NCBI GenBank assembly: GCA_046328015.1
Contig: JAXLXH010000001.1
Location: 907,305 to 971,304 of the forward strand
Direction of reading: 5' to 3'
Origin: Candidatus Sericytochromatia bacterium
GTDB taxonomy: Bacteria; Cyanobacteriota; Sericytochromatia; UBA7694; JACMQJ01
DNA length: 64,000 nt
The notes under the pieces were generated by a model, which saw only the letters and a list, made by a program, of their open reading frames with translations, searched no databases and was not told the DNA's origin. Numbering within the stretch: position 1 is the stretch's first letter; every line of letters begins with the position of its first letter. Position numbers and translations under genes: made by a program. This document shows positions 24,831-50,410 of the stretch, piece after piece.

Positions 24831-26056
24831 TTAAAACGACTAATTACTATACTAGAATTATGACCTCCGAAACCAAAACTATTAGATAAAATATTATTTA
24901 GTTTGGTTTCTTTAAAAGTATTAAAAACATAATTTAAATTACAATTAGGATCTTCAGTTTCAAAATTAATTGTAGGTGGGATAATATTATTTTCTAAAGA
25001 TAATATACAAGAAATAGCTTCTATAGCTCCAGAAGCCCCTAACATATGTCCTGTCATAGATTTTAAAGCACTAACAAAAGGTTCTTTTTGATTATAAAAT
25101 ACTTCTCTTATTGCCATAGATTCAGTTTTATCATTTGCTTCTGTAGATGTACCATGTGCATTTATATAATCTATATCAGAAAAATTTAAACCAGAATCTT
25201 TTACAGCACCAATCATACATTTTTTTATACTTTCCCCAGAAGCTTCTGGTAAAGTAATATGAAAAGCATCGCAATTAGAATAATAACCTTTTATCTCAGC
25301 CAAAATATTAGCTTTTCTTTTTTGAGCACTTTCCAAAGATTCTAAAATTAAAATACCTGAACCTTCTCCCATAACAAAACCATCTCTTTTAGCATCAAAT
25401 GGTCGACTAGCTTTTTTAGGTTCTTCATTATGTCTAGACATAGCTCTTAAAGAACAAAAACCAGCAAAACTTAGTGGTGTAATAGCAGATTCAGTTCCTC
25501 CACAAATAGCAGATTCTAAAGTACCAGCTTGAATTAATTTAAAAGCCTGACCAATAGCATCAGTTCCAGAAGCACAAGCCGTAACAGGACAATAATTAGT
25601 TCCTTTGGCATTATATTTTATTGCTACATAAGCTCCGGCTATATTAGGAATAATCATAGGTATAGTTAAAGGGCTAACTCTTGAGTTTCCTTTTTCTAAT
25701 AAAATACTATGCTGATTTTCTGTAACTCCAAAACCACCTATACCACAACCAATAATAACGCCTGTTTTTTCTGGGTTTTCTGATATATTGAGGCCAGATT
25801 GTAATAAAGCTTCATTAGTAGCTGCTAAAGCAAAATGACAAAATCGATCCATTCTTCTTACATCTTTTTTTTCAATATAATCATCAGGATTAAAATTTTT
25901 TACTTCAGCTGCTATTTTAGTAGAAAATTCATTTGCATCAAAAAGAGTTACATAATCAACTCCACTTTGACCCAAAAGCATATTTTCATAAAAAGTTTTT
26001 ATGTTATTTCCTATAGGAGTTACACTTCCAACTCCTGTTATTACTACTCTTTTCAT
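24827..26056 (-). CDS. fabF: 3-oxoacyl-[ACP] synthase II
   Basis: 409 aa. Active-site Cys in ...TACASGTDAIG..., HGTST and GHMLGASG motifs. Confidence 0.92.
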   Translation of the reverse strand: MKRVVITGVGSVTPIGNNIKTFYENMLLGQSGVDYVTLFDANEFSTKIAAEVKNFNPDDYIEKKDVRRMDRFCHFALAATNEALLQSGLNISENPEKTGVIIGCGIGGFGVTENQHSILLEKGNSRVSPLTIPMIIPNIAGAYVAIKYNAKGTNYCPVTACASGTDAIGQAFKLIQAGTLESAICGGTESAITPLSFAGFCSLRAMSRHNEEPKKASRPFDAKRDGFVMGEGSGILILESLESAQKRKANILAEIKGYYSNCDAFHITLPEASGESIKKCMIGAVKDSGLNFSDIDYINAHGTSTEANDKTESMAIREVFYNQKEPFVSALKSMTGHMLGASGAIEAISCILSLENNIIPPTINFETEDPNCNLNYVFNTFKETKLNNILSNSFGFGGHNSSIVISRFN

Positions 26057-26116
26057 TTTTTTATAAAAAAAGTTTATTTAAAAATTAACTTTTAAATAAA
26101 CTTCTAAACTAAAATT

Positions 26117-27085
26117 TTATTTTTTTAAACCAATTTCTACTAATCTTTTATTAAGATATTCACCAGCTGTCATATCAGAGAATTTTTTAGGATGTTTTTC
26201 ATCTATACAAGAATCTAAACAAGTTAAATCCATATCAGCTACTGGATGTAAAAAGAATGGAATAGAATATCTAGAAGTACCTAAAAGTTCTTTTGGTGGA
26301 TTTATTACTCTATGAGTAGTAGAAACTAATTTACCATTAGTTAATCTTTGAAGCATATCACCAACATTAATTACTAGTTCATCATCTTTAGCATTTAAAG
26401 ATAACCATTCACCATCTAATGTTTTTACTTGTAATCCATCTGCACTAGCACCTATTAATAAAGTAATTAAATTAATATCTTCATGTGCTTCAGCTCTAAC
26501 AGCACCTTCTGGTAAATCAACATCTATAAGAGGAAAATAATGTAACATTCTTAAAATACTATTTCCTTTTTGAACTTTATCGTCGAAGTAAAACTCATCT
26601 AATTTTAAAAATAAGGCAATAGCTCTTAATAATTCAATAGCAATATCTTCTAATTTTTTATAAACTTCTAAGGCTATTTTATTAAATTCAGGCAATTCTT
26701 TTACATAAACATTTTGATAAAAACCTTCTGGAATAACTCCGTCTTCAAATTCTTGACCCCATTGCCAAAACTCTTTTAGATCAGCTACTTTAGAACCCTT
26801 AGCAATTTCTTTACCTTTTGAAGTATATCCTCTTTGACCAAAAATACCCTCTATTTCATATTTTTTCTTAAATTCTTCTGGCTGAGAAAAAAAGTTTTTT
26901 ACTTGTTCATATAAATAATCTTTAGTTTGCGGTAATAATCCATGATTTTTTATTACAACAAAACCTATTTCGTTATAAGCTTTACCAATATTTTTACAAA
27001 ATTGTTTTTTTAGTTCTGGATTTCCACTTATTAGATCAGTATAATCTAGAGTTGGGATCTCCACTTTTGTTTTAGTTGCATTCAT
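26117..27085 (-). CDS. 2-oxoglutarate/Fe(II)-dependent oxygenase family protein (isopenicillin N synthase-like)
   Basis: HxD...H iron triad (AHEDINLITLL ... TTHRV). Probably co-transcribed with fabF, gap about 60 nt. Confidence 0.7.
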   Translation of the reverse strand: MNATKTKVEIPTLDYTDLISGNPELKKQFCKNIGKAYNEIGFVVIKNHGLLPQTKDYLYEQVKNFFSQPEEFKKKYEIEGIFGQRGYTSKGKEIAKGSKVADLKEFWQWGQEFEDGVIPEGFYQNVYVKELPEFNKIALEVYKKLEDIAIELLRAIALFLKLDEFYFDDKVQKGNSILRMLHYFPLIDVDLPEGAVRAEAHEDINLITLLIGASADGLQVKTLDGEWLSLNAKDDELVINVGDMLQRLTNGKLVSTTHRVINPPKELLGTSRYSIPFFLHPVADMDLTCLDSCIDEKHPKKFSDMTAGEYLNKRLVEIGLKK

Positions 27086-28649: not shown

Positions 28650-29957
28650 ATGATTACCGTTGATGAAGCAGAAAAAATAATCTTAGAAGAAACTAAAGAA
28701 TTATTTGATATAGAAAATATTAATTTAGAAAAAAGTTTTAGTAGAGTTCTAAGAGAAAATATTTATTCTGATAGAGAACAACCACCTTTTGATCGTGTAG
28801 CTATGGATGGCATAGCTATAAAATATGAAAGTTTAAAAAATAATTCTTTTATAATACAAGGAATACAAAGTGCTGGGATGCCTCCATTAGAACTAACTAG
28901 TTTAGATAATTGTATAGAAGTAATGACTGGGGCTGTTTTACCTTTAGGTTGCGATTGTGTTATTAAAGTAGAAGATTTAGAAATAAAAAATAATATTGCT
29001 TATTTAAAAGATGATATAACTATAGATTTTTTTCAAAATATACATAAAAAAGGAATAGATCATCCTAAAAATGCTGAAGTAATAAAAGAAAAAACTAAAA
29101 TTCTACCTACACATATTGCAATTTTAGCATCTGTAGGTAAACATATAATAAAAGTTACTAAAAACCCATCTATAGCTATAATTTCTACAGGTGATGAATT
29201 GGTCAATATAGAGCAAGATGTTTTACCACATCAAATAAGAATGTCTAATGCTTATGCAATACAAAGTGCTTTAAACAGTTTGGGTTATAATGAGACAAAA
29301 ATATTTCATTTAAAAGATGACAAAGTTGAATTGTTAGATAAAATAGCTAATATATTACTAAAATTTGATACAGTTATCTTAAGTGGTGGAGTTTCTATGG
29401 GAAAATTTGATTTTATTCCTCAGGTTATGAAAGAACTTGAAGTTGAAACTCTTTTTCATAAAATATCGCAAAAACCTGGAAAACCCTTTTGGTTAGGAAA
29501 AACTAAAGATAAAAAATTAGTTTTTGGTTTACCTGGAAACCCTGTATCTGTTTTAGTTTGCTTTTATAGATATATAATTCCTTTTTTAATAAAAAAAAGT
29601 GGCTTAGATTTAGAAAATAAAAAAGTTATTTTGAAAGAAACTTATAATAAATTTAAGACCTCTTGTGGGGTATCAACCCCACAAGAGGAAGGGTGTGGGG
29701 GCATTGCCCCCATACCCCCTAAAACCTCAGAGCATAGCTCCGAGGTATTTTCTAATAATAAAATAAATCTTACTTCATTTTTACCAGTTAATATTAGTTA
29801 TGATAATAATGGCTTTTTGGTAGCTAATATTGTTCCAAACAATGGTTCTGGTGATTATTATTCCATTTCCAAAAGTGATGGTTTTGTAGAGATAGAAAAA
29901 GATAAAAAAGTATTTGAAAAAGGCAGTTTAGTTAAATTTTTTTCTTGGAGTTTTTAA
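28650..29957 (+). CDS. moeA: Molybdopterin molybdotransferase MoeA, carrying an in-frame insertion of about 30 aa encoded by a GC-rich palindromic element
   Basis: MoeA N- and C-domains, GGVSMGKFDF. Insert ...TSCGVSTPQEEGCGGIAPIPPKTSEHSSEVF... is encoded at 29657-29748. Confidence 0.88.
   Translation: MITVDEAEKIILEETKELFDIENINLEKSFSRVLRENIYSDREQPPFDRVAMDGIAIKYESLKNNSFIIQGIQSAGMPPLELTSLDNCIEVMTGAVLPLGCDCVIKVEDLEIKNNIAYLKDDITIDFFQNIHKKGIDHPKNAEVIKEKTKILPTHIAILASVGKHIIKVTKNPSIAIISTGDELVNIEQDVLPHQIRMSNAYAIQSALNSLGYNETKIFHLKDDKVELLDKIANILLKFDTVILSGGVSMGKFDFIPQVMKELEVETLFHKISQKPGKPFWLGKTKDKKLVFGLPGNPVSVLVCFYRYIIPFLIKKSGLDLENKKVILKETYNKFKTSCGVSTPQEEGCGGIAPIPPKTSEHSSEVFSNNKINLTSFLPVNISYDNNGFLVANIVPNNGSGDYYSISKSDGFVEIEKDKKVFEKGSLVKFFSWSF
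29657..29748. repeat. GC-rich nested-palindrome element, family 2, copy 1, in frame inside moeA
   Basis: CCTCTTGTGGGGT-ATCAA-CCCCACAAGAGG, TGGGGGCATTGCCCCCA, ACCTCAGAGC-ATA-GCTCCGAGGT. Confidence 0.8.
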
Positions 29958-29960
29958 AAT

Positions 29961-30986
29961 ATGCTACTTCAACAGGAAAATGAATTTCAATTAGTCTATA
30001 ATGCGAATAATTCTGAAAAAAAAAATAATAAAGATGAAAAAGCAAATAAAAATAAACTAATAGATTCTTATAAACGTCATATTCATAAACTAAGAGTTCA
30101 ATTAACAGATGCTTGTAATTTTAGGTGTTTTTATTGTATGCCTGAAAATATAAAATTTAAACCTCATTCAGAATTATTAACTCCAGAAGAAATATATAAT
30201 ATTTGTTCTATTTTAACAGAAAATTTTGGAGTAGATGAATTAAGATTAACTGGTGGAGAACCAACAATAAGACCAGAATTTGAAGAAATTGTAAAAAAAT
30301 TAGATACTTTAAAAGTAAAAAAATACGGTTTAACTACCAATGGCTTTATTTTAGATAAAAAACTAGATTTTTTAAAAAATACTAATTGTAAAAATATAAA
30401 TATAAGTTTGGATAGTTTAGAAAGAAATAAATTTAACCAAATAACTAAAAGTACTTATTTTGATGATACATTTAAAGCTATTATAAAAGCAAAAGAATTA
30501 GGTTTTAATGTAAAAGTAAATACTGTTTTATTAAAAGGCATTAATGACGAAGAAATTTTTAATTTTATAGATTTTTCTGCTAAATATAATATTGAAGTTA
30601 GATTTTTAGAATTAATGAAAATTGGAGAAGCTATTAATAACCCTCTTTTTATTTCTGCAAAAGATCTTATAGATATAGTTAGAACTAAAGAAAAGCTTAC
30701 TTCTTTAAAAGTAGCTCAAGATTCAACTTCTTTTAATTATAAAACTTCTTCTAATGCAAAAATAGGTTTTATTGCTTCAGAATCAATGCCTTTTTGTAAC
30801 TCTTGTTCTAGAATAAGATTAAGTGCTACAGGTAAATTAAGAGCTTGCTTGATGTCAGAAGAAGGTATAAATCTTAAAGGAAAAACCAAAGAAGAATTTT
30901 CAGCAATTTTACAAGAAGTAATAGCTATGAAACCTAATTATAGAATACCTGAAATAAATCAAACAATGAATCAAATTGGTGGGTAA
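29961..30986 (+). CDS. moaA: GTP 3',8-cyclase (radical SAM)
   Basis: CNFRCFYCMP radical-SAM cluster. C-terminal CNSCSRIR second cluster. Confidence 0.92.
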   Translation: MLLQQENEFQLVYNANNSEKKNNKDEKANKNKLIDSYKRHIHKLRVQLTDACNFRCFYCMPENIKFKPHSELLTPEEIYNICSILTENFGVDELRLTGGEPTIRPEFEEIVKKLDTLKVKKYGLTTNGFILDKKLDFLKNTNCKNINISLDSLERNKFNQITKSTYFDDTFKAIIKAKELGFNVKVNTVLLKGINDEEIFNFIDFSAKYNIEVRFLELMKIGEAINNPLFISAKDLIDIVRTKEKLTSLKVAQDSTSFNYKTSSNAKIGFIASESMPFCNSCSRIRLSATGKLRACLMSEEGINLKGKTKEEFSAILQEVIAMKPNYRIPEINQTMNQIGG

Positions 30987-31463
30987 ATGCTATCTCATAT
31001 AGATAAAAATAATCAACCTTCTATGGTTGATGTAAGTAAAAAAATTGCTACTGTAAGAACAGCACATGCAAGAGCAATTATAAAATTAAATAAAGAAATT
31101 ATAGAGCTTTTTTCTGGTGAAGATATAAAAAGTAAAAAAGGGCCTGTTTTTCAAACAGCAATAATAGCAGGTATAATGGCTGCAAAAAAAACCTCAGCTT
31201 TAATTCCTTTATGTCATCCGATAGGTTTGGAAGATTGTCAGATAAAAATAGCCCTAAATGATTCAGAAGAGGCTGTTATAGATTGTATTACAAAAGTTAC
31301 TCATAAAACAGGTGTAGAAATGGAAGCTCTAACTGGTGCTAGTGTAGCAGCTTTGACTATTTATGATATGTGCAAAGCTATATCGCATGATTTAGTTATA
31401 AAAGAAATAAAATTAATTGAAAAAAAAGGTGGTAAAAGCGATTTTTATGGGGCTAAAACTTAA
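30987..31463 (+). CDS. moaC: Cyclic pyranopterin monophosphate synthase
   Basis: 158 aa. MoaC family (…LIPLCHPIGL…, …TGVEMEALT…). Confidence 0.92.
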   Translation: MLSHIDKNNQPSMVDVSKKIATVRTAHARAIIKLNKEIIELFSGEDIKSKKGPVFQTAIIAGIMAAKKTSALIPLCHPIGLEDCQIKIALNDSEEAVIDCITKVTHKTGVEMEALTGASVAALTIYDMCKAISHDLVIKEIKLIEKKGGKSDFYGAKT

Positions 31464-32529
31464 ACAAGATTATCTTTTTAATCCTTATGAAATCTTTTTT
31501 TGTGGTTTTTCTAATTCTGGTAAAACTACTTTAATAGAAAAATTAGTAAAAAAATTAGCACCTAATTATTCTATTGGTTATGCAAAACATGATGCTCATT
31601 TTTTTGAAATGGATAAAGAAGGTAAAGATTCTAATCTAATTTATAAGGCTGGGGTAAAACAGATTATTATAAATGATAAAGACCATTTTGCTCTGATAAG
31701 TAAAAATAATGATGAATTAGTTTTTAATCAAAAAAATTTTATACCTTATGATTTTGTTTTTGTAGAAGGTTATAAATATAATAATTACCCTAAAATAGTT
31801 TTAATTGACAAAGAAAAAAAGATTTTAGATGATTATAAAGAAGGAAAAATAACTAATGTTTTAGCTTTTGTAGGAGAAAAAGAGTTTAATAGTAATATAC
31901 ATTTTTTTAATAGGAATGATATAGATAATATAAGTAGTTTTATTATAAATTATTTTGAAAGTTTAAAACCTGAATTATACGGTTTAATTTTGGTTGGTGG
32001 CAAAAGTAGTAGAATGAAAAAAGATAAAGCTACTTTAAAATATCATGGAAAAACGCAATTAGAATACAATTATGAATTATTGACTAAATATTGTGATAAA
32101 GTTTTTATTTCTTCTAGAAAAGAACAAGATTTTCAAATAGAAGTACCTTATATTTATGATTCTTTTTTAGAAATTGGACCTATGGGAGGAATTTTATCAG
32201 CTTTAAAAACAAATCCTAAAACAGCTTTTTTAGTTATAGCTTGTGATATGCCTTATGTTAATGAAAAAACTATCGAAAAGTTAATTAGTAATAGAGATTT
32301 TTTTAAATATGCCACTTCTTATATAAATAATGAAAATAATTTCCCAGAACCTTTGTGTGCTATTTATGAACCTAAAATAAAAAGTAGATTATTAGATTTT
32401 TTAAGTTTTGATATTACTTGTCCTAGAAAAGTTTTAATTAACTCTTCTATAAAAGGAATTTTTCCTGAAAATAATTTAGAAATGAGTAATATAAATACTA
32501 TAGAAGAATTTAATAATTGTATAAACTAG
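31447..32529 (+). CDS. mobA: Bifunctional MobB-MobA: molybdopterin-guanine dinucleotide biosynthesis adapter fused to molybdenum cofactor guanylyltransferase
   Basis: N-terminal Walker A GFSNSGKTTL and AKHDAHFFEMDKEGKDS (MobB). C-terminal LVGGKSSRMKKDKATL, GPMGGILS, ACDMPYV (MobA). Overlaps the moaC 3' end. The track's alternative start is 31417. Confidence 0.8.
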   Translation: MGLKLKQDYLFNPYEIFFCGFSNSGKTTLIEKLVKKLAPNYSIGYAKHDAHFFEMDKEGKDSNLIYKAGVKQIIINDKDHFALISKNNDELVFNQKNFIPYDFVFVEGYKYNNYPKIVLIDKEKKILDDYKEGKITNVLAFVGEKEFNSNIHFFNRNDIDNISSFIINYFESLKPELYGLILVGGKSSRMKKDKATLKYHGKTQLEYNYELLTKYCDKVFISSRKEQDFQIEVPYIYDSFLEIGPMGGILSALKTNPKTAFLVIACDMPYVNEKTIEKLISNRDFFKYATSYINNENNFPEPLCAIYEPKIKSRLLDFLSFDITCPRKVLINSSIKGIFPENNLEMSNINTIEEFNNCIN

Positions 32530-32836: not shown

Positions 32837-34045
32837 TCATTTAGTAAAATAACTTATTTTATTAATACTAGCTATTATATCTTCATAATCTAACCCAAAA
32901 TCAATTAAACATGCTATTTCTGTAACTCCTATCTTAGCCAATTTAGCTATTTTATCTTCCAAAATTTCTTTATCTCCAAAAAAAGTTCTATTTTCAAAAT
33001 ATCTTTCAAAAGCAAACTCTAATAACTCTTCTTTATCATTTTTAGTCAAATTTTCAGGATTTATTGTTAAATCTGAAGCATTTCCAAATTTACCTAATAA
33101 ATCTAATGTACTTTTTAAATACTTTTTAAAGGGTTCTTTTACTTTATTTTTTACTTGTTCTTTAGATTCTCCAAAATAACTATGCATAAAAACAGCTATT
33201 TTTTTATTTTTTCTATGACCGTTTTTTTCTAAAGCTTGAAAATAAAGTTCTAATTTTTTCTCTAATTCTTCTATATCTTGATCTAATAAACAAGTCATCA
33301 AATTATAACCTTTTTCTCCTACTTTTATATAAGTTTCTGGATTCCCTATAGCAGTTACCCAAATTTCTAAATTTTTATTATAGGGTTTAGGATGAATTTC
33401 TATTTCTATTTCTTTATTAGCCCCATTTATTCTTTTTAATTTTTCTCCTTCCCATAGCTTTTTTACTTCTTCTATTCTATCAAACATAATTTCTTTTCTA
33501 TTTTGATAATTTTCTGGTTCAAAAACAAAATCATTTATATGCCAACCCGTAGCAAAAGATAACTCTACTCTACCTTTAGATAAGTTATCTATAATAGACC
33601 AATTTTCAGCGGTTCTTATTACGTCATTTATAGGTAAAACAACACTACCAGCTCTTAAACTAATATTTTTAGTAATACTACTTAAAGCAGCAGAAATAAT
33701 CGCAGGATTTGAATAAATACCGCCTAATTTATGAAAATGTCTTTCTGGAGTCCAAATAGCTGAAAAGTTATTTTCATCTGCAATTTTTGCTACTTCTAAT
33801 AATAATTTATATTTATCATTTTCATCATCTACATTATCAGAAAAAAGAAAAATACTAAAATCCATTTTTATATTATTTTTTTTAGCTAAAAAATTAATTA
33901 TTGTTTTTTTATTTTCGACTAAAAAATTTTTTATTTCTGGAGTTATAAAACCTTTGGGAGCTTGTATTTTTAGTTCTTTATCTACTAAAGAGATTATTAT
34001 ATCTTTTTCTTTTAAGTCATCTAGTATTTTTTCTATTTTTGACAT
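32837..34045 (-). CDS. Luciferase-like (flavin-dependent) monooxygenase with N-terminal TubC-N-type docking domain
   Basis: Residues ~60-402 match the LLM TIM barrel. The first ~55 aa (DIIISLVDKELKIQAPKGFITPEIKNFLVENKKTIINFL) match the TubC_N docking-domain pattern (..L...G..L...AP.G.LTPEL...L..HK..IL..L). Confidence 0.75.
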   Translation of the reverse strand: MSKIEKILDDLKEKDIIISLVDKELKIQAPKGFITPEIKNFLVENKKTIINFLAKKNNIKMDFSIFLFSDNVDDENDKYKLLLEVAKIADENNFSAIWTPERHFHKLGGIYSNPAIISAALSSITKNISLRAGSVVLPINDVIRTAENWSIIDNLSKGRVELSFATGWHINDFVFEPENYQNRKEIMFDRIEEVKKLWEGEKLKRINGANKEIEIEIHPKPYNKNLEIWVTAIGNPETYIKVGEKGYNLMTCLLDQDIEELEKKLELYFQALEKNGHRKNKKIAVFMHSYFGESKEQVKNKVKEPFKKYLKSTLDLLGKFGNASDLTINPENLTKNDKEELLEFAFERYFENRTFFGDKEILEDKIAKLAKIGVTEIACLIDFGLDYEDIIASINKISYFTK

Positions 34046-35866: not shown

Positions 35867-36457
35867 ATGGCTGAGAAAAAAAGTAATAACGATAAATTTT
35901 TTAAAGAAGATTCTAAAAAAGGTAAATCTAATTCTCAAGTTGATTTTATTAAAGGGGAGCTTTTTGATGCAGAATTAGAAGAAAGAATTAATTCTGTAAG
36001 TATAGATGAAGATGAAATAGATTCTTTTGAAATAGCGGATTTAGAATTTGATGAAATAGATGAACTTGAAATTAATGATGAAATAGACTTTGAACCACAA
36101 AATGATACTAGTTATCTAGCTACTGATAAAAAAAAGCCTACTATAGAAGTTATTAATAGAAAAGTTTTAACTAATAAAAGTGATGAAAAAAAAGCCAGTA
36201 AAATGGTTTCTAAAGAAGCCACTAAACTAGTTAAAGATTTTATAAAACAAGATTTACCTATAAATGAAGTAAGAAATATTTTAGAGTTATCTCATGGAGA
36301 TAAAGAACTTCTTATGAATACACCATTTGGTTCAAACTCTTCAAATTCTCAAGAAAAAAAAGAACTTATAAATAAATTAAATGATATAACATCTAGTGAT
36401 GAAGTAAATATAGCAAATGCTAGTTTTGTTTTGAAATGGCTGAAGAATCGTAGTTAA
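35867..36457 (+). CDS. Hypothetical acidic protein, cassette 2 gene A
   Basis: Paralogous to 19565..20041 (…NILELSHGDKELLMNTPFGSNSSNSQEKKELI… versus …RILKPTQVDKERLSKMDFQSRSDMSDEEKKDFI…; C-terminal xLKWLKNR versus xVWKWQQNR). Confidence 0.5.
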   Translation: MAEKKSNNDKFFKEDSKKGKSNSQVDFIKGELFDAELEERINSVSIDEDEIDSFEIADLEFDEIDELEINDEIDFEPQNDTSYLATDKKKPTIEVINRKVLTNKSDEKKASKMVSKEATKLVKDFIKQDLPINEVRNILELSHGDKELLMNTPFGSNSSNSQEKKELINKLNDITSSDEVNIANASFVLKWLKNRS

Positions 36458-36459: not shown

Positions 36460-37086
36460 ATGGAAAAAGATAAAAATAAACCTCAGCCAATAAACAATAT
36501 ACTTGAAAGAGTAATTGATGCTGAGCTTTATGAAAAATACAGAAGAAATTTAGGGTTTTCAATAACCCCTGATTATCTTTATCAATGGGCATTAATAAGT
36601 TTAAACGAAGATAATTCTGATAAAGCAATAAGCTTTATTATTTCTGCTTTAGATATAGATAGAAAACATGCTCCTACTTTACACCTATTAAAAAGTTTAA
36701 TTATAGGTATTAGTAAAGATTTTTATGAAAATGGTGGTTCTAGATATAAACAATCGCATGAAAGTTTTGATGAACTAGTATCTTCGATAAAAAAAAAGGC
36801 ATTAGTAGTTAAAAAAAAGAATGAGCAAATAAAATTAGAAATAAGTTCTTTAGAAAGTTCTATAAACTCCTCTTTTGCTCCTTTTAAAATATTAAAAAAA
36901 TTCCAAAAAGAAAAAGATTTAATAGCCTTAAAAAATAAGATTATAGAGAATCAAGATAAGATAGATTTTTATAAAAGAGAAATTAAAAAAATTAGACGCT
37001 TTCAAAAAAATGAAGAGTATTCTAAAATTTTGGGTACAATACTTGAAATTTGTGTAATGCCTAAAAAATATGCTGTAACCAATTAA
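36460..37086 (+). CDS. Hypothetical helical/coiled-coil protein, cassette 2 gene B
   Basis: Paralogous to 20057..20680. Starts 3 nt after gene A. Confidence 0.55.
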   Translation: MEKDKNKPQPINNILERVIDAELYEKYRRNLGFSITPDYLYQWALISLNEDNSDKAISFIISALDIDRKHAPTLHLLKSLIIGISKDFYENGGSRYKQSHESFDELVSSIKKKALVVKKKNEQIKLEISSLESSINSSFAPFKILKKFQKEKDLIALKNKIIENQDKIDFYKREIKKIRRFQKNEEYSKILGTILEICVMPKKYAVTN

Positions 37087-37095
37087 AGGATTTTT

Positions 37096-38133
37096 ATGTC
37101 TATTTCTGAATACAAATTAACCGAACTAACAGAGGCTGGTGGCTGAGCATCCAAAATCGGAAGTAACCGATTGGGGCAAGTTTTGTCTCAGATACCAAAA
37201 TTTGAAAGTGAAAATCTATTAGTAGATTTATCAACAAATGAAGATGCAGGTGTTTATAAATTAAATGATACTACTGCTTTAGTTCAGACTGTAGATTTTT
37301 TTACACCTGTTTTAGATAATCCTTATTTATATGGAGCAGTTTCAGCTGCTAATTCATTAAGTGATGTTTATGCTATGGGTGGTAAACCTATTACAGCTAT
37401 GAATATTTTATGTTTTCCTAATAATTTACCAGATGAAATTTTGACAGAAATATTAAAAGGTGGGGCTGACAAAGTAAAAGAAAGTGGTGCTATTTTACTT
37501 GGGGGTCATAGTGTAAAGGATAAAGAAATAAAATTTGGTTTATCTGTAACAGGTTTAATTTCTCCAGATAAAGTCTATACAAATTCAAATTTAAAAGAAG
37601 ATGATATTTTAGTACTTACAAAACCTTTAGGTGCAGGTATTTTGACAACTGCTTTAAAAAAGAAATTTGTAATAGAAGACGAAATAAAAGATTGTATTGA
37701 TGGAATGATGCAATTAAATAAAATAGCTTGTGAAGTTATGATTGATACACCTGAAGTTCATTCTTGTACAGATATAACTGGTTTTGGTTTATTAGGTCAT
37801 TTAAAAGAAATGTGTGAAGGCAGCAATAAGGGAGCTGAATTGTATTTTAATAAGTTTAAATTTTATGATAAAACCTTAGAGTTTCTTGAAAAGGGTGCTG
37901 TATCTGGAGGTTGTAAAGAAAACTTAAAAACTTTTGAATCTTTTACTTTTTTCGATTCTAAAATAACTTTAAATGAAAAATACTTATTAGCAGATCCTCA
38001 AACTTCAGGGGGACTTTTAATAAGTATTAATCAAAAATATGCTGATACTTTTTTAGATAATTTACTAAAAAAAGGTTTAAATGCTTTTATTATAGGTAAA
38101 GTTATAAAGGAAAAAGTTATAAAAATATTTTAG
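37096..38133 (+). CDS. selD: Selenide, water dikinase (selenophosphate synthetase), selenocysteine-containing: TGA at 37144-37146 is read as Sec
   Basis: ATG at 37096 is in frame with the track ORF 37171..38133. Translation MSISEYKLTELTEAGG-U-ASKIGSNRLGQVL... matches the SelD N-terminus (…AGGUAAKI / AGCGCKI) with Sec at the catalytic position. The SECIS-like hairpin begins 7 nt after the TGA. Confidence 0.85.
37151..37176 (+). promoter_or_regulatory. Bacterial SECIS-like hairpin (stem AAAATCGG/CCGATT, apical loop AAGUAA containing GU) immediately 3' of the in-frame UGA
   Basis: Complementarity read from the sequence. Position and loop content are as expected for bSECIS elements. Confidence 0.65.
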
Positions 38134-42552: not shown

Positions 42553-44031
42553 CTAAAATCCAATTTTTGCCATTTGTAAAAATGGAGCTGGAGCTAAGAA
42601 TAAAACTAATAAACCTAATAAGCTTATAATAGCAGCCATAGCTAAAGCAGCATTTGGAGCTTCCCAAGTAATAGATTCTTCTGGTTCTCTTAGATACATA
42701 GCTTTCATAACTTTTACATAATAGTATAAAGATACTACACTGTTTAATGCACCGATAAAAGCTAACCAAGCATAGCCTGAATTGAAAGCAGATACAAATA
42801 AATATAATTTACCAGTAAAACCGCCAAATGGAGGTAAACCTGCTAAAGAAACTAAACAACAAGAAAATACGAATGCAATAAAAGGTGATTTTTTAGCAAC
42901 TCCTGCAAAAGAATCTATATCTGTAGAACCAGTATGTTTTGAAAAGTACATTATTGCTCCAAAAGCACCTATATTCATAAATATATAGGTTGTTAAGTAA
43001 AATAAAACACTGGTAAAATCATCATAGTTTCCTTTCATTAAAGGGATAATACCAATAAGTATATAACCTGCATGAGCAATACTTGAAAAAGCAAACATTC
43101 TTTTTACATTTTTTTGAATAATAGCTAAAAAGTTTCCTGCACACATAGTAATAATAGAAACAATTACAACTAAGGTTAATAATTGATTTGCAAGCTCATT
43201 AGTGAATATTTGTATAAATCTAGCAAAAGCTGCAAAACCAGCAATTTTTGATGTTATTGATAAAAACGCAGTAACAGGAGTTGGAGCCCCTTCATAAACA
43301 TCTGGAGCCCACATATGAAATGGAGCAGCAGCTATTTTATAAGCTAAACCAGAAAAACTCATTACAGTTGCTATTACTAAAATAACATTTAAAGGTTGAG
43401 AGTATTTAGACAAACCTGCAGCTACAGTAGGAAAATCTATTGCTCCAGTCAAACCAAACATAATAGAAAAACCATAAAGAGTTAAAGCAGATGATAAACC
43501 ACCAACAACAAAATATTTTAAAGCAGATTCAGAAGATTTTGGATTATCTTTATTCATACAAGTAAGTACATAAGAGCTGATACTTAAGAGTTCAACTCCT
43601 AAGAAAAAGGTAATCATTTCATTTGCAGATGATAAAAACATACCACCTAAAGTTGCCATACAAATTAGTGAATAAAATTCACCAGAGTTTCTTATTTTTT
43701 CACTAACATATCTAAAAGAAATTAAAACAGTTAAGATTGATGATAAAACTATTATCATTTTGAAATAAACTGCAAAATCATCTAATAAAAAAGATTGATG
43801 AAAAGTAGCTTTATCTGAAGCAAAAAAGCCTTCTGTTATTCCAAAACCTACAGATTTGAAACCAACTAAAGAACCAAAAGATAAACATAAACCTACTAAA
43901 GCGGCTAAACCAATATTACGCCCTCTTTTTTCTTTTATTTTATCAACTGGTTTGAAAAACCACTCACCGAATACTACAACGCACGCCGTGAGTATTAATA
44001 TTAATTCTGGTATAAAAACAGCGAAATTCAA
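42553..44031 (-). CDS. nuoN: NADH-quinone oxidoreductase subunit N
   Basis: 492 aa, 14 TM, antiporter-like subunit, last gene of the operon. Confidence 0.9.
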   Translation of the reverse strand: MNFAVFIPELILILTACVVVFGEWFFKPVDKIKEKRGRNIGLAALVGLCLSFGSLVGFKSVGFGITEGFFASDKATFHQSFLLDDFAVYFKMIIVLSSILTVLISFRYVSEKIRNSGEFYSLICMATLGGMFLSSANEMITFFLGVELLSISSYVLTCMNKDNPKSSESALKYFVVGGLSSALTLYGFSIMFGLTGAIDFPTVAAGLSKYSQPLNVILVIATVMSFSGLAYKIAAAPFHMWAPDVYEGAPTPVTAFLSITSKIAGFAAFARFIQIFTNELANQLLTLVVIVSIITMCAGNFLAIIQKNVKRMFAFSSIAHAGYILIGIIPLMKGNYDDFTSVLFYLTTYIFMNIGAFGAIMYFSKHTGSTDIDSFAGVAKKSPFIAFVFSCCLVSLAGLPPFGGFTGKLYLFVSAFNSGYAWLAFIGALNSVVSLYYYVKVMKAMYLREPEESITWEAPNAALAMAAIISLLGLLVLFLAPAPFLQMAKIGF

Positions 44032-44043
44032 AATTTATCCTCC

Positions 44044-45585
44044 TTAAGCACCTAGACCCATAAGAAGCATTAGTTGCTTTGTTGCAGGGTTTATTATATC
44101 AAGTAAAAGTGCTGGGTATAATCCTGTTGCTACTACTATTGTCATAAGTAATACAACACTAAATGTTTCTAATTTATCTATATCTGGTAAACCTTTCCAA
44201 GCAGCTGGAAGTGGTCCAAAAAACACTCTTTCATTTAACCATAAAGTATATGCAGCACCTATAACTACACTGAAGGCTGCTAAAGCACATAAGTATGGAT
44301 GAGTTTGGAAAGAACCTGCGAATACTAAAAATTCACTAACAAAGCTATTCATACCTGGAACAGCAACTCCAGCCATAGAAATAGCTACAAAGAAAGCACC
44401 TGCGATTGGCATTTGTTGAGCCAAACCACCTAATTTAGCAATTTCTCTTGTATGAGTTCTATCATAAACAACACCTACAAATAAGAACATCATTGCAGTA
44501 ATAGTTCCGTGTGTAAACATTTGAAGTATTGCTCCATTTAAACCATTTGCATTTAAACCAGCCATACCTAAAAGTACAAATCCCATGTGGCTAACACTTG
44601 AATAAGCTATAACTTTTTTCATATCTGTTTGTGCTAATGCTAAAAAAGCACCATACATTATATTTACAGCTCCTAAAGCAGCTAACCAAAAACCTATATC
44701 TAAAACTGTATTTTTAACAGATACTACATCTGGAAATAATCCAAATCCAAATCTTATCATTCCATAAGATCCCATTTTTAAGAGTACTCCTGCAAGAACA
44801 ATACTTAATGCAGTTGGAGCTTCAACGTGAGCATCTGGTAACCATGTATGAAAAGGAACCATAGGAAGTTTTACCGCAAAACAAATCATTAAAGAAATAA
44901 AAGCTAAAGTTTGAACTGTCATTCCTAAGTTTGCAAAAACTTTATTACCAGATTGAGCAAGTTGTACATAATCAAAAGAACCTGTAGTTAAAAATATTCC
45001 TAAAAATACTACTAACATAAAAGCACTAGCAAAAGATGTATAAAGAATAAACTTCATTGCTGCATATTCTCTTCTTGCTCCACCCCATATACCAATTAAG
45101 AAGTACATAGGTATTAATTCTAATTCCCACATTACAAAGAATAAGAATAAATCTAAAGAAGTAAAAACTCCTAAAACAGCTGTTTGCATTACCATCATAA
45201 GAAAGAAATACATTCTTGGCATTTTTTCAACTTTCCAAGAAGCTAAAACAGCTACAATCATAATTAATGAAGTAAGTAAAACCATTGGAATACTTAAACC
45301 ATCAACTGCTACATAGTAATAACTATTTATTACTGGTATCCAAGAAAACTTATCCACAAATTGAAAATTAAACATTGCAGCTGGATCAGCTGAAGGCTTA
45401 AAGTTCATTGCTAACATCAAAGAAAAGATGAAAGTAATAGCTGTTGTAACAAGAGCTACTTTATGTGGCAATTTATTTCCTTCCGCAGGTTTAGGTAGTA
45501 TAAGCTGAATTAAGCCACCTAACATGGGGAAGAATATTATTAAGGTTAAAAACAAACCATTTAATGCTGATGAATCTACTGTCAT
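44044..45585 (-). CDS. nuoM: NADH-quinone oxidoreductase subunit M
   Basis: WLPDAHVEAPTALSIVLAGVLLKMG. Confidence 0.92.
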   Translation of the reverse strand: MTVDSSALNGLFLTLIIFFPMLGGLIQLILPKPAEGNKLPHKVALVTTAITFIFSLMLAMNFKPSADPAAMFNFQFVDKFSWIPVINSYYYVAVDGLSIPMVLLTSLIMIVAVLASWKVEKMPRMYFFLMMVMQTAVLGVFTSLDLFLFFVMWELELIPMYFLIGIWGGARREYAAMKFILYTSFASAFMLVVFLGIFLTTGSFDYVQLAQSGNKVFANLGMTVQTLAFISLMICFAVKLPMVPFHTWLPDAHVEAPTALSIVLAGVLLKMGSYGMIRFGFGLFPDVVSVKNTVLDIGFWLAALGAVNIMYGAFLALAQTDMKKVIAYSSVSHMGFVLLGMAGLNANGLNGAILQMFTHGTITAMMFLFVGVVYDRTHTREIAKLGGLAQQMPIAGAFFVAISMAGVAVPGMNSFVSEFLVFAGSFQTHPYLCALAAFSVVIGAAYTLWLNERVFFGPLPAAWKGLPDIDKLETFSVVLLMTIVVATGLYPALLLDIINPATKQLMLLMGLGA

Positions 45586-45626
45586 TTTGTTTTTTCCAAA
45601 TTCCGTAAAAATCTAATATCTATAAC

Positions 45627-47699
45627 TTATTTAACATTCAATATTTTTCTAGCTAAGGTATAAGCATAAGTAGCCAAGCTAAGTAATACAATTACACCCA
45701 CACTTGCTAAAACCCAAACCCATTTTTCAGTAAGGTTTTTTACAAGATAAGCATAATTAGTTGAAGCAAATATTAATAATAATACTGCGACTATTACACC
45801 CATAGCATATTGTTGAACCTTACCACTATGAAGTCTTTTTGCTGCATGTGCCACACCCAAACAAGCCCAGCTTACAGCATTAACTATCATATCAATACCA
45901 AATTTATCAAATATAGAAGATGCTTTAGCAAAAGCTAAAACAAATTTATCTATAACCCAAAGATAAGCTTCATCTACATAAAGTTTATTAAGAGATGCAT
46001 TGAATAATGGTTTCATTTTTTTAGAAAGCTCTTCAGCTTTTGTTAAGTCACCTTTTCCATAAATTGCAAAAGATAATCCTGTTCCTACTAAAAAGATTAC
46101 TAAAGAACAACCCATAACAATAAAGTTTGGTCCATGATGAGCAGAGTGTTCTGCTGCATGTTGAACCACAGGATTATAATGAACAAAATCTTTAAAATAA
46201 TCTGCCCAAGGAGTTCCAACAAAACCTATTAATAAAGAAGGGATAGATAAAAATACTAAAGGAAATTTCATTCTCCAACCTGGTTCATGTGGATGTCCAT
46301 GCCCTCTATATTCACCTTCAAAGGTTAAGAAATATAATCTAAACATATAGAAAGCTGTCATAGTTGCTGCAATACCAGCAAAAACAAAGTAAACAATATT
46401 AGCTTCAAAAATAGCATCTAACATTGCATCTTTACTCCAGAAACCTGCTAAACCTGGGGCACCTGAAATTGCTGCTGTTCCTATTAAACAAGAAATAGCA
46501 GTAATAGGCATTTTCTTTCTTAAACCACCCATTTCAAAAATATCTTGTGTATGACAAGCATGTATTACACTACCTGAACATAAGAACAACATAGCTTTAA
46601 AGAATGCGTGAGTAAATAAGTGGAAAATAGCTGCTGTATAACCTAAAGGAGTAATTCCACCTTCTGTAGAATACATACCTAAAGTTAAAATCATGAAACC
46701 TAATTGACTTACTGTAGAATAAGCCAAAATCTTTTTTATATCTCTTTGAGTGATAGCAATAAAAGCTGCCATAATTGCTGTAATACCACCAATTATAGCT
46801 ATAAAATCTAATGCATTTAGCATTCCGAACAAAGCTGGGAAGGTAGCTTGAGAAAATACAGTCATAATTTTTGCAACCATATAAACTCCAGCTGCAACCA
46901 TTGTTGCTGCGTGAATTAATGCACTCACTGGTGTAGGACCTTCCATCGCATCTGGTAACCAAACGTGTAATGGAAATTGACCTGATTTACCAATCGCACC
47001 AAAAAAGGTTAAGATTGCTGCGAAAGTTAAAACTGCACCAGTCATTTTACCTGCTGCTATTTGAGCAGCAGCAAGATCAAAATTTAATGTATTTGTATAT
47101 GTGAATATTAAAAGTATTCCTAATAAAAATCCAAAGTCACCAACTCTGTTAGCTAAAAAAGCTTTTTTAGCTGCATAAGGAGCTGATTTTTTCTCATAAA
47201 AGAAGCTAATTAATAAAAATGAGCTAACACCCACCAATTCCCAACCAGCATAAAGTACTAAGAAATTATCTGTAAGAACTAATAAAAGCATTGAGAATGA
47301 GAATAAAGAAAGTTCTGCGTAATATCTAGAAAAAGAATAACCTTTATGAATATATTCTTCCATATACTCTCTAGAATATAATTGAACTAAAGTACTTATA
47401 AGTGTAACTACTACCAACATCATGGCAGTAACGGCATCGACTCTCCAACTTACTGAAAAATCAAAGTTACCACTAGTAAACCATCTTAAAGCACCACTTG
47501 AATTTTGTAAAACATAATTAATATCTGTTACTGCTTGATAACCTATCAAGCAAGAAAGCATAAGTGCTATAAAAATAAAACCTCTTGAAATTCTTGAACT
47601 TAAAACTGGAGACTTTCTAGTAAAGAAAGTAATAACACCAGCTGAAAGTAGTGGTAAAAAGGCCACTAGCCAAGCGTTTTTTACTGCAAATTCTATCAC
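45627..47699 (-). CDS. nuoL: NADH-quinone oxidoreductase subunit L
   Basis: 690 aa. WLPDAMEGPTPVSALIHAATMV. Long C-terminal extension typical of NuoL. Confidence 0.92.
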   Translation of the reverse strand: MIEFAVKNAWLVAFLPLLSAGVITFFTRKSPVLSSRISRGFIFIALMLSCLIGYQAVTDINYVLQNSSGALRWFTSGNFDFSVSWRVDAVTAMMLVVVTLISTLVQLYSREYMEEYIHKGYSFSRYYAELSLFSFSMLLLVLTDNFLVLYAGWELVGVSSFLLISFFYEKKSAPYAAKKAFLANRVGDFGFLLGILLIFTYTNTLNFDLAAAQIAAGKMTGAVLTFAAILTFFGAIGKSGQFPLHVWLPDAMEGPTPVSALIHAATMVAAGVYMVAKIMTVFSQATFPALFGMLNALDFIAIIGGITAIMAAFIAITQRDIKKILAYSTVSQLGFMILTLGMYSTEGGITPLGYTAAIFHLFTHAFFKAMLFLCSGSVIHACHTQDIFEMGGLRKKMPITAISCLIGTAAISGAPGLAGFWSKDAMLDAIFEANIVYFVFAGIAATMTAFYMFRLYFLTFEGEYRGHGHPHEPGWRMKFPLVFLSIPSLLIGFVGTPWADYFKDFVHYNPVVQHAAEHSAHHGPNFIVMGCSLVIFLVGTGLSFAIYGKGDLTKAEELSKKMKPLFNASLNKLYVDEAYLWVIDKFVLAFAKASSIFDKFGIDMIVNAVSWACLGVAHAAKRLHSGKVQQYAMGVIVAVLLLIFASTNYAYLVKNLTEKWVWVLASVGVIVLLSLATYAYTLARKILNVK

Positions 47700-47720
47700 G
47701 ATTAATACCTCAATTTTCCC

Positions 47721-48032
47721 TTACCACTTCATAGTACTGATTCTTTCCATATCAGCAGTTTGAGAGTTTTTAAACACGTTAAAGATTATTGCTAATCCAA
47801 CTCCAGCTTCTGCTGCTGAAACGGTCATTATGAAAATAGTAAAAATTTGTCCTGTTAATTGAGCAGGGGTTATATAGTTAGAAAAAGCTACTAAATTAAC
47901 ACTCACACCTGCCAAAGCAATTTCTAATGACATAAGAACTCTCACTGCATTCTTACTAGTAAGAACGCCATATATTCCTATACAAAACAAAACTGCTGCC
48001 AAAAACAAATAATGATATAAAGTTAAACTCAT
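47721..48032 (-). CDS. nuoK: NADH-quinone oxidoreductase subunit K
   Basis: 103 aa, 3 TM, conserved acidic residues. Confidence 0.9.
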   Translation of the reverse strand: MSLTLYHYLFLAAVLFCIGIYGVLTSKNAVRVLMSLEIALAGVSVNLVAFSNYITPAQLTGQIFTIFIMTVSAAEAGVGLAIIFNVFKNSQTADMERISTMKW

Positions 48033-48047
48033 TTTATATAACCTTTT

Positions 48048-48782
48048 CTATTTTTTTACTGATACTTCTTTTTCTAATTCTTCTACTTTTGCTTTTTCAA
48101 TTAAATCTTCTTTTATATCAGACTCTCTGAGAGCTAAAACTATAGCTCCAATTAAAGCCATTAATAAAAGAATTGAAGCAATTTCAAAAGGAATTAAATA
48201 TTTATCAAAAAATGCATTACCAATTATTTCAGTTGTAGAAACAGATACTGGTTCTTTTACTGCCCATATAGATGGAGCCCAAGTAATTATATTACCTGCA
48301 TTAGCATCTACTACATTTTTTGAAAAAGGTGCCATTAAATTTATATTTACACCTAATGTTCTTAAAATTAAAATTAAAAATAATCCAAAACAACATAATA
48401 CAAATGATACAAATCTGTATTCTGAAGAATAAGGCTTTTTATCCGAATCATTTTTAGCATTTGTTAGCATAACAGCAAACATCATCATAATTGTAACAGC
48501 ACCACCATTTATTAAAATTTGTGCTGCTGCTAAAAAGTCTGCATTTAAAAGTGCATAAATACCTGCTGTACTTACAAAAGTTAAAACAAGTAAAAAACCT
48601 GCATGCATTAGGTTTGGTACAGTAACAACACCTACAGCTGAAGATATCATTAAACCTGATAAAAGATAAAAAGCAAGATCTTTACCAAAACCGATACTTC
48701 CTACCACAAGGCTAGTTAGTAAAAGTACAATAGCACTTACAAATATCCCAAAAATTACTAAAAACGACTTATCTTTCCACAT
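48048..48782 (-). CDS. nuoJ: NADH-quinone oxidoreductase subunit J
   Basis: NuoJ/ND6 membrane core with a charged C-terminal tail. Confidence 0.85.
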   Translation of the reverse strand: MWKDKSFLVIFGIFVSAIVLLLTSLVVGSIGFGKDLAFYLLSGLMISSAVGVVTVPNLMHAGFLLVLTFVSTAGIYALLNADFLAAAQILINGGAVTIMMMFAVMLTNAKNDSDKKPYSSEYRFVSFVLCCFGLFLILILRTLGVNINLMAPFSKNVVDANAGNIITWAPSIWAVKEPVSVSTTEIIGNAFFDKYLIPFEIASILLLMALIGAIVLALRESDIKEDLIEKAKVEELEKEVSVKK

Positions 48783-48809
48783 AAAAACTATTTCTCCTTG
48801 TTCTTACCA

Positions 48810-49322
48810 CTATTTTTTAGCCGGAGCTTTATCTGGTGGTAAGTACATATTAGGTTTTTCTACATACTTTGCTAATTTATGCATATCATAAAGAAAATCT
48901 TCTTGTTTAAAACCAGCTGTTTCGAACTCATGAGTCATCTCTAAAGCTCCTACAGGACAAACTTCAACACAATTTGCACATGATATACATTCACCAATAT
49001 TTATTTCATAAACAGTGGTTTTTATTTTTTTGTCTTCACCTTTTTCGGTTTCTATTTTAATAGTTTGGGGAGGACAAACTTTAGCACAAGCATGACAACC
49101 TATACATAACATTTTTCCATCTTCTTTGTTATATAAAAAAGCAAAACGTCCTCTAAATCTTTGAGGTAATTTTCTTTTTATATCAGGATATATTTCTGTA
49201 ACTTTAGCTTGAAATATATAAAAGAAAGTTAATTTTAATCCTCTATATATAGCTTCAATTCCATCAAAAATATTTTGGAAGTATTTTTCTACTGAATTTA
49301 ATTTTTGTTCTGTTCTTTCCAT
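48810..49322 (-). CDS. nuoI: NADH-quinone oxidoreductase subunit I (2x[4Fe-4S] ferredoxin)
   Basis: CIGCHACAKVCP and CISCANCVEVCP. Confidence 0.92.
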   Translation of the reverse strand: MERTEQKLNSVEKYFQNIFDGIEAIYRGLKLTFFYIFQAKVTEIYPDIKRKLPQRFRGRFAFLYNKEDGKMLCIGCHACAKVCPPQTIKIETEKGEDKKIKTTVYEINIGECISCANCVEVCPVGALEMTHEFETAGFKQEDFLYDMHKLAKYVEKPNMYLPPDKAPAKK

Positions 49323-49332
49323 TTAAAGCTCC

Positions 49333-50394
49333 TTATCTGCTAAAAACACCAAAACCTACTGCTGCTAAAAGAGCAGTAACTAATATGTTTGCCAAAGCTA
49401 AAGGCAATAAGTATTTCCAAGCAAAAGCCATAAGTTGGTCAGCTCTTACTCTTGGTAATGTACCTCTTATCCATACAACTACAGAAAAGAAAAACATTGT
49501 TTTTATAAAAAACCAAATTAATCCTAATTGGTTTGTTAATTGAATCCCAACTTCTCCTAAGTAAGAATCAAAAGGGAATCTCCAACCACCAAAAAATAAA
49601 GTAGTACATAAAGCACCTAATGTAAAAGTATTTATATACTCTGCTAAGAAGAACATAGCAAATTTAAAACCACTATATTCTGTGTTATAACCAGATACAA
49701 GTTCAGATTCTGCTTCTGGTAAATCGAAAGGTATTCTATTTACTTCTGAAAGAGAACAAGTAAAAAATATAAAAAATGCAACTGGTTGTTTTATAATATT
49801 CCAAATATCTTGTTTTTCAACAACATCAACTATACTTAAAGATCCTGTTAATAAAATAACTCCCACTAAAGATAAAAGTAATGGTATTTCATAACTAATA
49901 GCCTGAGCAACAGCTCTTATACCACCCATAAGGGAGTATTTATTGTTAGAAGCCCAACCTGCCATCATAATACCTAATGTTGTAAGTGAAGATATAGAGA
50001 AGAATAAAAATAATCCTGCTCCTACATTACTAACAACCATACCATTTCCAACAGGAACTAAACTATAAACTAATAAACCTGGTACAAAAACCAAAACAGG
50101 AGCCAAACTAAATAGAATTTGGTCAGCATCTCTTGGTACTATGTCTTCTTTTAACATTACTTTTAAAGCATCTGCAAAAGATTGAAATAAACCCGCAGGA
50201 CCTAATCTATTTGGACCTAATCTTACTTGTACAAAAGCAATAAGTCTTCTTTCCCACCATATAAGTAAGAAAACAGTTGTTAAAACTAAACTAGCAATAG
50301 CAAGGGTAGGAACAATAAGTCCTAATCCGTTTCTAACTGGTTCAAAAGGTATGAAGCTTAAAAGTGCTTCATAAATTTTTATCAATATTTCCAT
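49333..50394 (-). CDS. nuoH: NADH-quinone oxidoreductase subunit H
   Basis: RLGPNRLGP…, ND1 family. Confidence 0.92.
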   Translation of the reverse strand: MEILIKIYEALLSFIPFEPVRNGLGLIVPTLAIASLVLTTVFLLIWWERRLIAFVQVRLGPNRLGPAGLFQSFADALKVMLKEDIVPRDADQILFSLAPVLVFVPGLLVYSLVPVGNGMVVSNVGAGLFLFFSISSLTTLGIMMAGWASNNKYSLMGGIRAVAQAISYEIPLLLSLVGVILLTGSLSIVDVVEKQDIWNIIKQPVAFFIFFTCSLSEVNRIPFDLPEAESELVSGYNTEYSGFKFAMFFLAEYINTFTLGALCTTLFFGGWRFPFDSYLGEVGIQLTNQLGLIWFFIKTMFFFSVVVWIRGTLPRVRADQLMAFAWKYLLPLALANILVTALLAAVGFGVFSR

Positions 50395-50410
50395 TTTTGC
50401 TCCTTAAATG

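Follow-up and report, generated by a model that had tools for sequence, protein, structure and literature searches.

Does a TGA codon near the 5′ end of the selD gene of a Candidatus Sericytochromatia bacterium end translation, or is it read as selenocysteine (Sec), making the product, selenide, water dikinase (SelD), a selenoprotein? The gene lies at 37096–38133 (+ strand) of a 64,000-nt stretch of DNA (hereafter the window; positions 907,305–971,304 of GenBank contig JAXLXH010000001.1) taken from a 3.55-Mb metagenome-assembled genome (MAG) of "Candidatus Sericytochromatia", Sericytochromatia being a class in the Cyanobacteriota/Melainabacteria group. SelD ranks second among prokaryotic selenoprotein families by spread (PMC13188914) and has been described as "frequently misannotated" (PMC13326102), and the Sec-decoding trait has been reported as undetected in Cyanobacteria (PMC1794560; repeated in PMC9312934). 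We conclude, with a probability of roughly 92%, that the window carries a Sec-type selD in which UGA is decoded as Sec17, and that a hairpin within the coding sequence at 37171–37191 (H2) is the best candidate for its Sec insertion sequence (SECIS). Sec incorporation is predicted here from comparison of nucleotide and protein sequences.

Results

Reading frame and catalytic site of SelD

The selD frame comprises 346 codons from ATG 37096 to a TAG ending at 38133 (345 aa plus stop), and its sole interruption is the TGA at 37144–37146, codon 17. The list of open reading frames (ORFs) obtained with translation table 11 puts the start at TTG 37171, downstream of the TGA; the initial annotation had pointed to the in-frame ATG and to the lone TGA separating it from that ORF, and both are present at these positions. 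A Shine-Dalgarno-like AAAGGA (37085–37090, + strand), read from the sequence, stands 5 nt upstream of the ATG (37096–37098) and overlaps the TAA stop (37084–37086) of the preceding ORF (36460–37086); the selD ATG begins 9 nt past the stop of this ORF. Translated through the TGA, the gene reads MSISEYKLTELTEAGG-U-ASKIGSNRLGQVL…, which includes the segment LTELTEAGG-U-ASKIGSNRL.

The read-through product matches the NCBIfam SelD equivalog TIGR00476 with 368.5 bits (cutoff 125), residues 7–314 corresponding to positions 1–309 of the 311-position profile. It also matches NF002098 (320.5 bits; cutoff 299) and the Pfam families AIRS (PF00586; 91.9 bits) and AIRS_C (PF02769; 80.1 bits). Since the TIGR00476 match starts at profile position 1, the 16 codons 5′ of the TGA belong to the family match. 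The SelD structures 2YYE and 3U0O in the PDB likewise align with the read-through product from residues 2–7 on. SelD of Escherichia coli (3U0O), a Cys-type enzyme, is of the same family and length, its alignment with the window protein covers residues 2–336, and its Cys17 and Lys20 match U17 and K20, a correspondence that requires UGA to be read through. U17 also aligns with the catalytic-loop Cys of the Aquifex aeolicus SelD constructs (2YYE/2ZOD), and the Lys is conserved; we take these crystal constructs to be ones in which the natural Sec was swapped for Cys. The proposal that the TGA (37144–37146, + strand) falls at the conserved catalytic position of SelD is borne out by these alignments, and the codon for Lys20 of the U-x-x-K motif follows at 37153–37155 (+ strand). 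Were translation to begin at 37156 or 37171, the product would be missing the catalytic Sec/Cys17-Lys20 loop. All of the family features that were tested are present, and the gene is a selD for selenide, water dikinase; selenophosphate synthesis is its predicted activity.

Conservation of the UGA codon

DNA was gathered for every close homologue available (loci L001, L002/L009, L003/L004, L005–L008, L169, L170, and L171), and the clade is represented by eight distinct sequences (the window, L001, L002/L009, L003, L005, L169, L170, and L171). Identity to the window SelD is 63–75% overall, with L001 at 74–75% and L002 and L009 at 65–67%. L009, from Sericytochromatia MAG STL-CYA1 (assembly JAXLXG01), was the best match of a scan of GTDB (67% identity). 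The clade is scarce in public data, with eight distinct sequences, and the metagenome collection scanned gave none closer than 50%; the nearest SelD proteins outside the clade are 50–52% identical and come mostly from Bacillota.

All eight distinct members carry TGA at the catalytic codon, embedded in the motif (K/R)LT(E/Q)L(T/V)E(A/S)(G/A)G-U-ASK(I/L)G, and the Lys20 codon is invariant in the clade alignment (A2). Codons flanking the TGA on both sides differ mostly synonymously across the clade; over the ten codons preceding it, synonymous and non-synonymous differences number 3 and 1 relative to L001, 5 and 1 relative to L005, and 6 and 2 relative to L171. The upstream codons, whose conservation as coding sequence in relatives the initial annotation had singled out as decisive, are indeed conserved. 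These patterns strongly support the view that the UGA and its flanking frame have been kept under purifying selection. Neither a nonsense mutation nor an untranslated leader would show such retention of the TGA amid mostly synonymous change.

Two hairpins downstream of the UGA

Candidate recoding signals were compared with the bacterial SECIS (bSECIS) consensus of PMC13188914, which calls for a loop of 3–9 nt, a stem of 4–16 bp, 16–37 nt between UGA and loop, a minimum free energy (MFE) of ≤ −7.5 kcal/mol, and G at loop position 1 or 2, usually followed by G or U. Two hairpins, H1 and then H2, follow the UGA in all members of the clade, and the register of H1 is not conserved among them.

H2 occupies 37171–37191 (+ strand) and consists of the 5′ arm UUGGGGCAA, the loop GUU, and the 3′ arm UUGUCUCAG, forming 9 bp that include three G·U pairs. 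Its triloop is the Val codon of the peptide 'QVL' and lies 33 nt after the UGA. H2 agrees with the consensus in loop length, stem length, position of the loop G, and spacing, and its energy of −6.9 to −7.7 kcal/mol, depending on context, is borderline with respect to the −7.5 rule. Within the clade, the positions of the H2 stem are 95% paired vs. 20–65% in slid controls, with two compensatory pairs; most relatives have a bulged-C form of the stem, in which every nucleotide is the same, synonymous sites included.

H1 (37153–37172, + strand; AAAAUCGG, loop AAGUAA, CCGAUU) has the core AUCGG[AAGUAA]CCGAU at 37156–37171 and begins at the seventh nucleotide after the UGA. It is the hairpin that the initial annotation proposed as the SECIS. 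The hairpin itself exists: folding of 40 nt from the UGA yields −11.2 kcal/mol (z = −2.5), and 5 of 200 shuffled sequences are as stable. H1 is probably not the SECIS, as the loop is 14 nt from the UGA and has its G at position 3, departing from the consensus in both spacing and loop G, and as pairing among relatives in a common register is 64%, no better than in slid controls, with no compensatory change.

Sec-type and Cys-type selD across phyla

The GTDB scan (80 SelD loci returned) and the metagenome scan together supplied 160 further SelD loci, and the set compared, clade loci included, came to 153 distinct 5′ regions. When the window N-terminus was set against Sec- and Cys-type SelD, as the initial annotation had suggested, the catalytic codon proved to be TGA in 120 of the 153 genes and TGT or TGC in the other 33. 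A consensus-fitting hairpin with an energy of ≤ −4 kcal/mol was found in 111 of 120 Sec-type vs. 6 of 33 Cys-type genes (Fisher p = 9e-17); at ≤ −7.5 kcal/mol, the counts were 77/120 and 0/33. The distinction persists when coding is controlled for by comparing only genes with a Val codon (GUN) at codon +12: a stem of 5 bp or more encloses this codon in 47 of 87 Sec-type genes and in none of 26 Cys-type genes (Fisher p = 9e-8). Cys-type selD, with TGT or TGC in place of TGA, has no SECIS-type hairpin downstream by the −7.5 kcal/mol threshold (0 of 33) or by closure of the +12 codon (0 of 26), and Cys-type genes encoding xVL never form a hairpin of the H2 type.

In the commonest Sec-type design, which is that of H2 in the window and accounts for 43 of the 111 genes with a rule-fitting hairpin, a GU-N triloop follows the UGA at a distance of 33 nt. 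In an alignment of 49 sequences of this '+33' class (A3), the helix is 89% paired vs. 30–50% when slid. Sequences entered this alignment only if 4 bp or more surrounded the triloop; this choice raises the apparent pairing of the inner pairs and leaves covariation of the outer ones unaffected. The number of doubly changed cells in A3 was 67 vs. 19.4 ± 3.2 in shuffled alignments, and none of 500 shuffles reached 67. Columns 12 and 22 (window positions 37176 and 37186) form one such pair, with GC in 23 sequences, UA in 11, CG in 7, AU in 5, GU in 2, and an unpaired combination in none. The two bases of this pair are the synonymous third base of an Ala or Gly codon and the first base of the codon that follows 'QVL'; across the class (loci L012–L166), GCG is paired with Arg (CGC), GCU with Ser (AGC), GCA with Cys (UGC), and GCC with Gly (GGC). 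The covariation implies that RNA structure co-determines whether Arg, Ser, Cys, or Gly stands after 'QVL'.

It is conceivable that H1 is the functional SECIS after all, with H2 either arising as a side effect of encoding the conserved peptide 'GQVLSQ' or being a mere accessory. Within the window, H1 is a well-formed fold (−9.2 kcal/mol over nt 4–33) and belongs to the −11.2 kcal/mol MFE structure, each clade member folds some hairpin at this place with a loop containing G and U (AGUU, GAUAA, AGCU, or UGUAA), and in some other Sec-type selD genes the loop of the SECIS is located at +16 to +20. Folding of the H1 interval is, in addition, modestly stronger among Sec-type genes (median −6.0 kcal/mol) than among Cys-type ones (−3.4 kcal/mol; p = 4e-4). 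However, besides the irregular spacing and loop G of H1 and its control-level pairing, the position of H1 is not conserved across phyla, whereas H2 covaries and discriminates Sec-type from Cys-type genes far better (p = 3e-11 vs. 4e-4). We consider a SECIS role for H1 unlikely on balance. H2 is likely the SECIS to which SelB would bind, with H1 as a possible accessory structure or spacer.

Public gene calls and the meaning of the TGA

The selD gene of the window is represented in NCBI by MFN8671260.1 ([quoted passage not shown]), which is 100% identical and encoded on a single contig of 3,555,234 bp. This record is 325 aa long, begins MGSNRL…, and takes as its start a non-canonical ATC at 37156, 9 nt after the TGA. 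In two Logan assemblies of the gene, one call is 320 aa from TTG 37171 and the other (P0122) is 345 aa with the UGA translated as Trp. Hence, a single selD gene has three mutually inconsistent public calls, with starts at 37156, 37171, and 37096. The start codon of the 320-aa call is at the same time the first codon of the 5′ arm of the H2 SECIS candidate. Truncation of this gene by automated callers, as had been anticipated, is seen in both the NCBI and the shorter Logan call.

The two truncated calls are what one would expect if the TGA were a true stop, either upstream of a 5′-truncated SelD translated from 37156 or 37171 or as the mark of a pseudogene in which a Cys codon (TGY) had changed to TGA. 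TGA does serve as a stop elsewhere in the window, and no Sec machinery is seen there. This explanation is nevertheless improbable. The short product would be without its catalytic Sec/Cys17-Lys20 loop, and the NCBI start is an ATC. Moreover, the 16 upstream codons fit the SelD profile and show purifying selection in eight lineages that all have TGA, and a Sec-specific, covarying hairpin follows the TGA.

With regard to the genetic code, the window has a G + C content of 26.8%, and, with length counted from the start codon, 2 of 46 long ORFs have TGA as their stop; among stop-to-stop ORFs of 150 codons or more, three do so, and at least two of these are genes. TGG accounts for 137 of 17,224 codons in long ORFs, and intact table-11 ORFs, up to 1109 aa in length, cover 81% of the window. 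TGA in the window is otherwise a stop and not a sense codon. That UGA is read as Trp, Gly, or Cys through a reassigned code or near-cognate read-through, independently of Sec machinery, is the least probable explanation, for although AT-richness and rare TGA stops are a typical background for reassignment and one public call (P0122) has Trp at this codon, the intact ORFs and TGG codons are incompatible with codes 4 and 25, the conserved SECIS-type hairpin would be left without explanation, and, given what is established about Cys17 of SelD, the enzyme would lose its activity with Trp or Gly in place of the catalytic Cys/Sec.

When all six frames were scanned for ORFs that bridge a UGA and have a consensus-type hairpin after it, selD was the sole credible case in the window, and no second selenoprotein gene emerged. 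The eight other hits were set aside, being short ORFs, antisense or overlapping, inside annotated genes. One antisense candidate, inside a hydrolase gene at 17369–18424, also has a consensus-fitting hairpin. Together with its conservation in all eight clade sequences, this result speaks for an in-frame TGA in selD that did not arise by chance.

Sec machinery and selenium-related genes

ARAGORN found no tRNA and Rfam gave no hit in the window, and ARAGORN found no tRNA-Sec in the clade loci L001–L009. Using tblastn with confirmed SelA and SelB probes from L019, there was no match in the window or in L001–L009. The same probes matched 26 and 23 other selD loci, respectively, and ARAGORN placed a tRNA-Sec beside selD in 17 of 60 loci (L009–L068), so both approaches are able to recover these genes. 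In many phyla, a tRNA-Sec is found a few kb or less from selD, as in L012, L015, L018, L019, L025, L033, L035, L039, L041, L044, L050, L051, L062, and L066. In Acidobacteriota (L039, L062, and L066), the selD gene that it adjoins is of the Cys type, and L019 has a complete selD-selA-selB-selC row.

The window has 57 ORFs that reach 100 aa, and searches with Pfam and NCBIfam, which covered about 50 of them (the nuo-cluster ORFs 47721–48032 and 48810–49322 being among those left out), revealed no further selenium gene except one for a Cys-type MsrB. A full molybdopterin-guanine-dinucleotide cluster (moeA, moaA, moaC, and a mobB-mobA fusion) is located at 28650–32529 (+ strand), about 5 kb 5′ of selD. 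This cofactor serves enzymes of the formate-dehydrogenase type, the commonest bacterial selenoproteins; no enzyme of that type was found in the window.

Neighborhood of selD and other features of the window

Immediately 5′ of selD are two ORFs on the same strand (35867–36457 and 36460–37086, +) of 196 and 208 aa, neither of which has a Pfam or NCBIfam match even at E ≤ 1. They were considered as selenium partners and rejected, as they have no family match and no synteny with selD in relatives. Promoter and terminator scans gave signals at shuffle level, and Rfam in permissive mode over 36900–37500 gave only chance-level matches. In L170 (583–1002), genes for a DCC1-like thiol-disulfide oxidoreductase (Cys type, DGVCNFC) and a universal stress protein are immediately 5′ of selD. 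The selD neighborhood is otherwise not conserved inside the clade, and the flanks in L009 consist of MCP, thrS, and unknowns.

Elsewhere in the window, two adjacent large ORFs of 475 and 1109 aa (2604–4031 and 4045–7374, − strand) have no Pfam family at E ≤ 1e-5, and a YhgA-like (Transposase_31) gene sits amid a housekeeping region (13632–14600, +). Secondary-metabolism fragments at 24827–27085 (−) and 32837–34045 (−) comprise a stand-alone ketosynthase, a 2OG-Fe(II) oxygenase, and a MupA/Atu3671-type luciferase-like monooxygenase; the last has an N-terminal TubC docking domain and is among the few window ORFs with a TGA stop. An NDH-1/nuo run occupies 42553–51520 (−), in which subunits N, H, J, and the 49-kDa subunit D were recognized by family and M and L are suggested by size and position; no genes of the NuoE/F/G type were found among the window ORFs scanned. 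A trio encoding DUF4388, Roadblock-LC7, and Arf-like small GTPase proteins (55521–57447, +) resembles an MglA/MglB-like polarity module. Lastly, an LdpA-like Fe-S protein is encoded at 59050–60102 (−) in this non-photosynthetic relative of cyanobacteria; the LdpA family is known from the cyanobacterial circadian input pathway.

Discussion

The observations on selD fit a scheme in which translation would initiate at ATG 37096 and UGA codon 17 (37144–37146) would be decoded by Sec-tRNA(Sec) brought by the elongation factor SelB. SelB, in turn, would be tethered to an mRNA hairpin downstream within the coding sequence, for which H2 (37171–37191) is the best candidate, and H1 (37153–37172), the smaller hairpin lying between the UGA and H2, could serve as spacer or accessory. 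The resulting 345-aa enzyme would carry Sec17 and Lys20 in a flexible N-terminal catalytic loop and make selenophosphate. As selenophosphate is needed for Sec-tRNA, synthesis of SelD would depend on its own product.

Several points weigh against this scheme. When the 60 nt that follow the UGA are folded, the MFE structure contains H1 together with another, AU-rich hairpin in preference to H2. The H2 stem is AU/GU-rich and its energy borderline (−6.9 to −7.7 kcal/mol), with most clade relatives at about −6 kcal/mol. A conserved 'AQVLSQ' peptide could account for part of the sequence conservation of H2, and the way in which the A3 sequences were picked favors pairing near the loop. In addition, no tRNA-Sec, selA, or selB was detected in the 64-kb window or in the clade loci scanned (L001–L009), and earlier surveys gave no Sec trait in Cyanobacteria (PMC1794560, PMC9312934). 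On the strength of the conserved UGA and the conserved SECIS candidate, we infer that selA, selB, and selC are located elsewhere in the 3.55-Mb genome.

The window gene has much in common with other Sec-type selD genes, such as those of Bacillaceae, Clostridia, and Chloroflexota (L012–L088), which likewise encode a standalone AIRS fold with UGA in the catalytic loop and a Lys three residues on. A GU-N triloop on a Val codon at +33 is common to the window selD and at least 43 Sec-type genes from many phyla, and truncation in annotation is a fate it shares with other Sec-type SelD (PMC13326102). It differs from them in lineage, Candidatus Sericytochromatia, and in its GG-U-ASK motif, where others more often have AG-U-AAK or GG-U-GCK. 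Its H2 stem is weaker and AU/GU-rich, at about −7 kcal/mol vs. a median of about −11 kcal/mol for the '+33' class, and, unlike in L019 for example, the gene is without adjacent selA, selB, or selC. Compared with fdhF of E. coli, the paradigm of the bacterial SECIS, and with the bSECIS model, H2 is similarly intragenic and 3′ of the UGA, has a small loop with G and then U, and is spaced within 16–37 nt. The fdhF SECIS has a 4-nt loop at about +18, whereas the loop of H2 is a 3-nt GUU at +33 and the interval between UGA and SECIS candidate is filled by the separate small H1. The single bulged base in the H2 stem of most clade relatives recalls the bulged U in the stem of the fdhF SECIS.

Sec-type SelD is itself well known, and what is mildly new here is the host lineage. 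A proteome survey recorded a single Sec-containing protein in a Melainabacteria (PMC9529120), and our literature search found no paper joining Sericytochromatia with selenocysteine. Identity of 50–52% to the nearest SelD outside the clade is compatible with lateral acquisition and with ancient retention. Extending the interpretation to the clade as a whole is more speculative, and we see about even odds for the following: that this entire AT-rich group of non-photosynthetic cyanobacterial relatives decodes Sec, within a phylum-level group surveyed as lacking the trait; that a Sec-type SelD about 50% identical to its nearest counterparts outside the clade, mostly from Bacillota, may sustain the trait; and that its mRNA combines H1 with a '+33' GUU SECIS, the RNA constraint of which dictates N-terminal residues of the protein.

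The known mechanism of selenoprotein synthesis is unchanged by the window selD, and the main value of the finding lies in a corrected annotation and a wider taxonomic range of Sec use. MFN8671260.1, which is without the catalytic loop, should give way to an entry for the selenoprotein of 345 aa, in which codon 17 is marked as a translation exception, and the '+33 GU-N triloop' class offers a simple Sec-specific mark for spotting Sec-type selD genes. For the organism, a Sec-type selD would imply a working Sec-insertion system in Sericytochromatia, and would extend the use of Sec to the Cyanobacteriota/Melainabacteria group.

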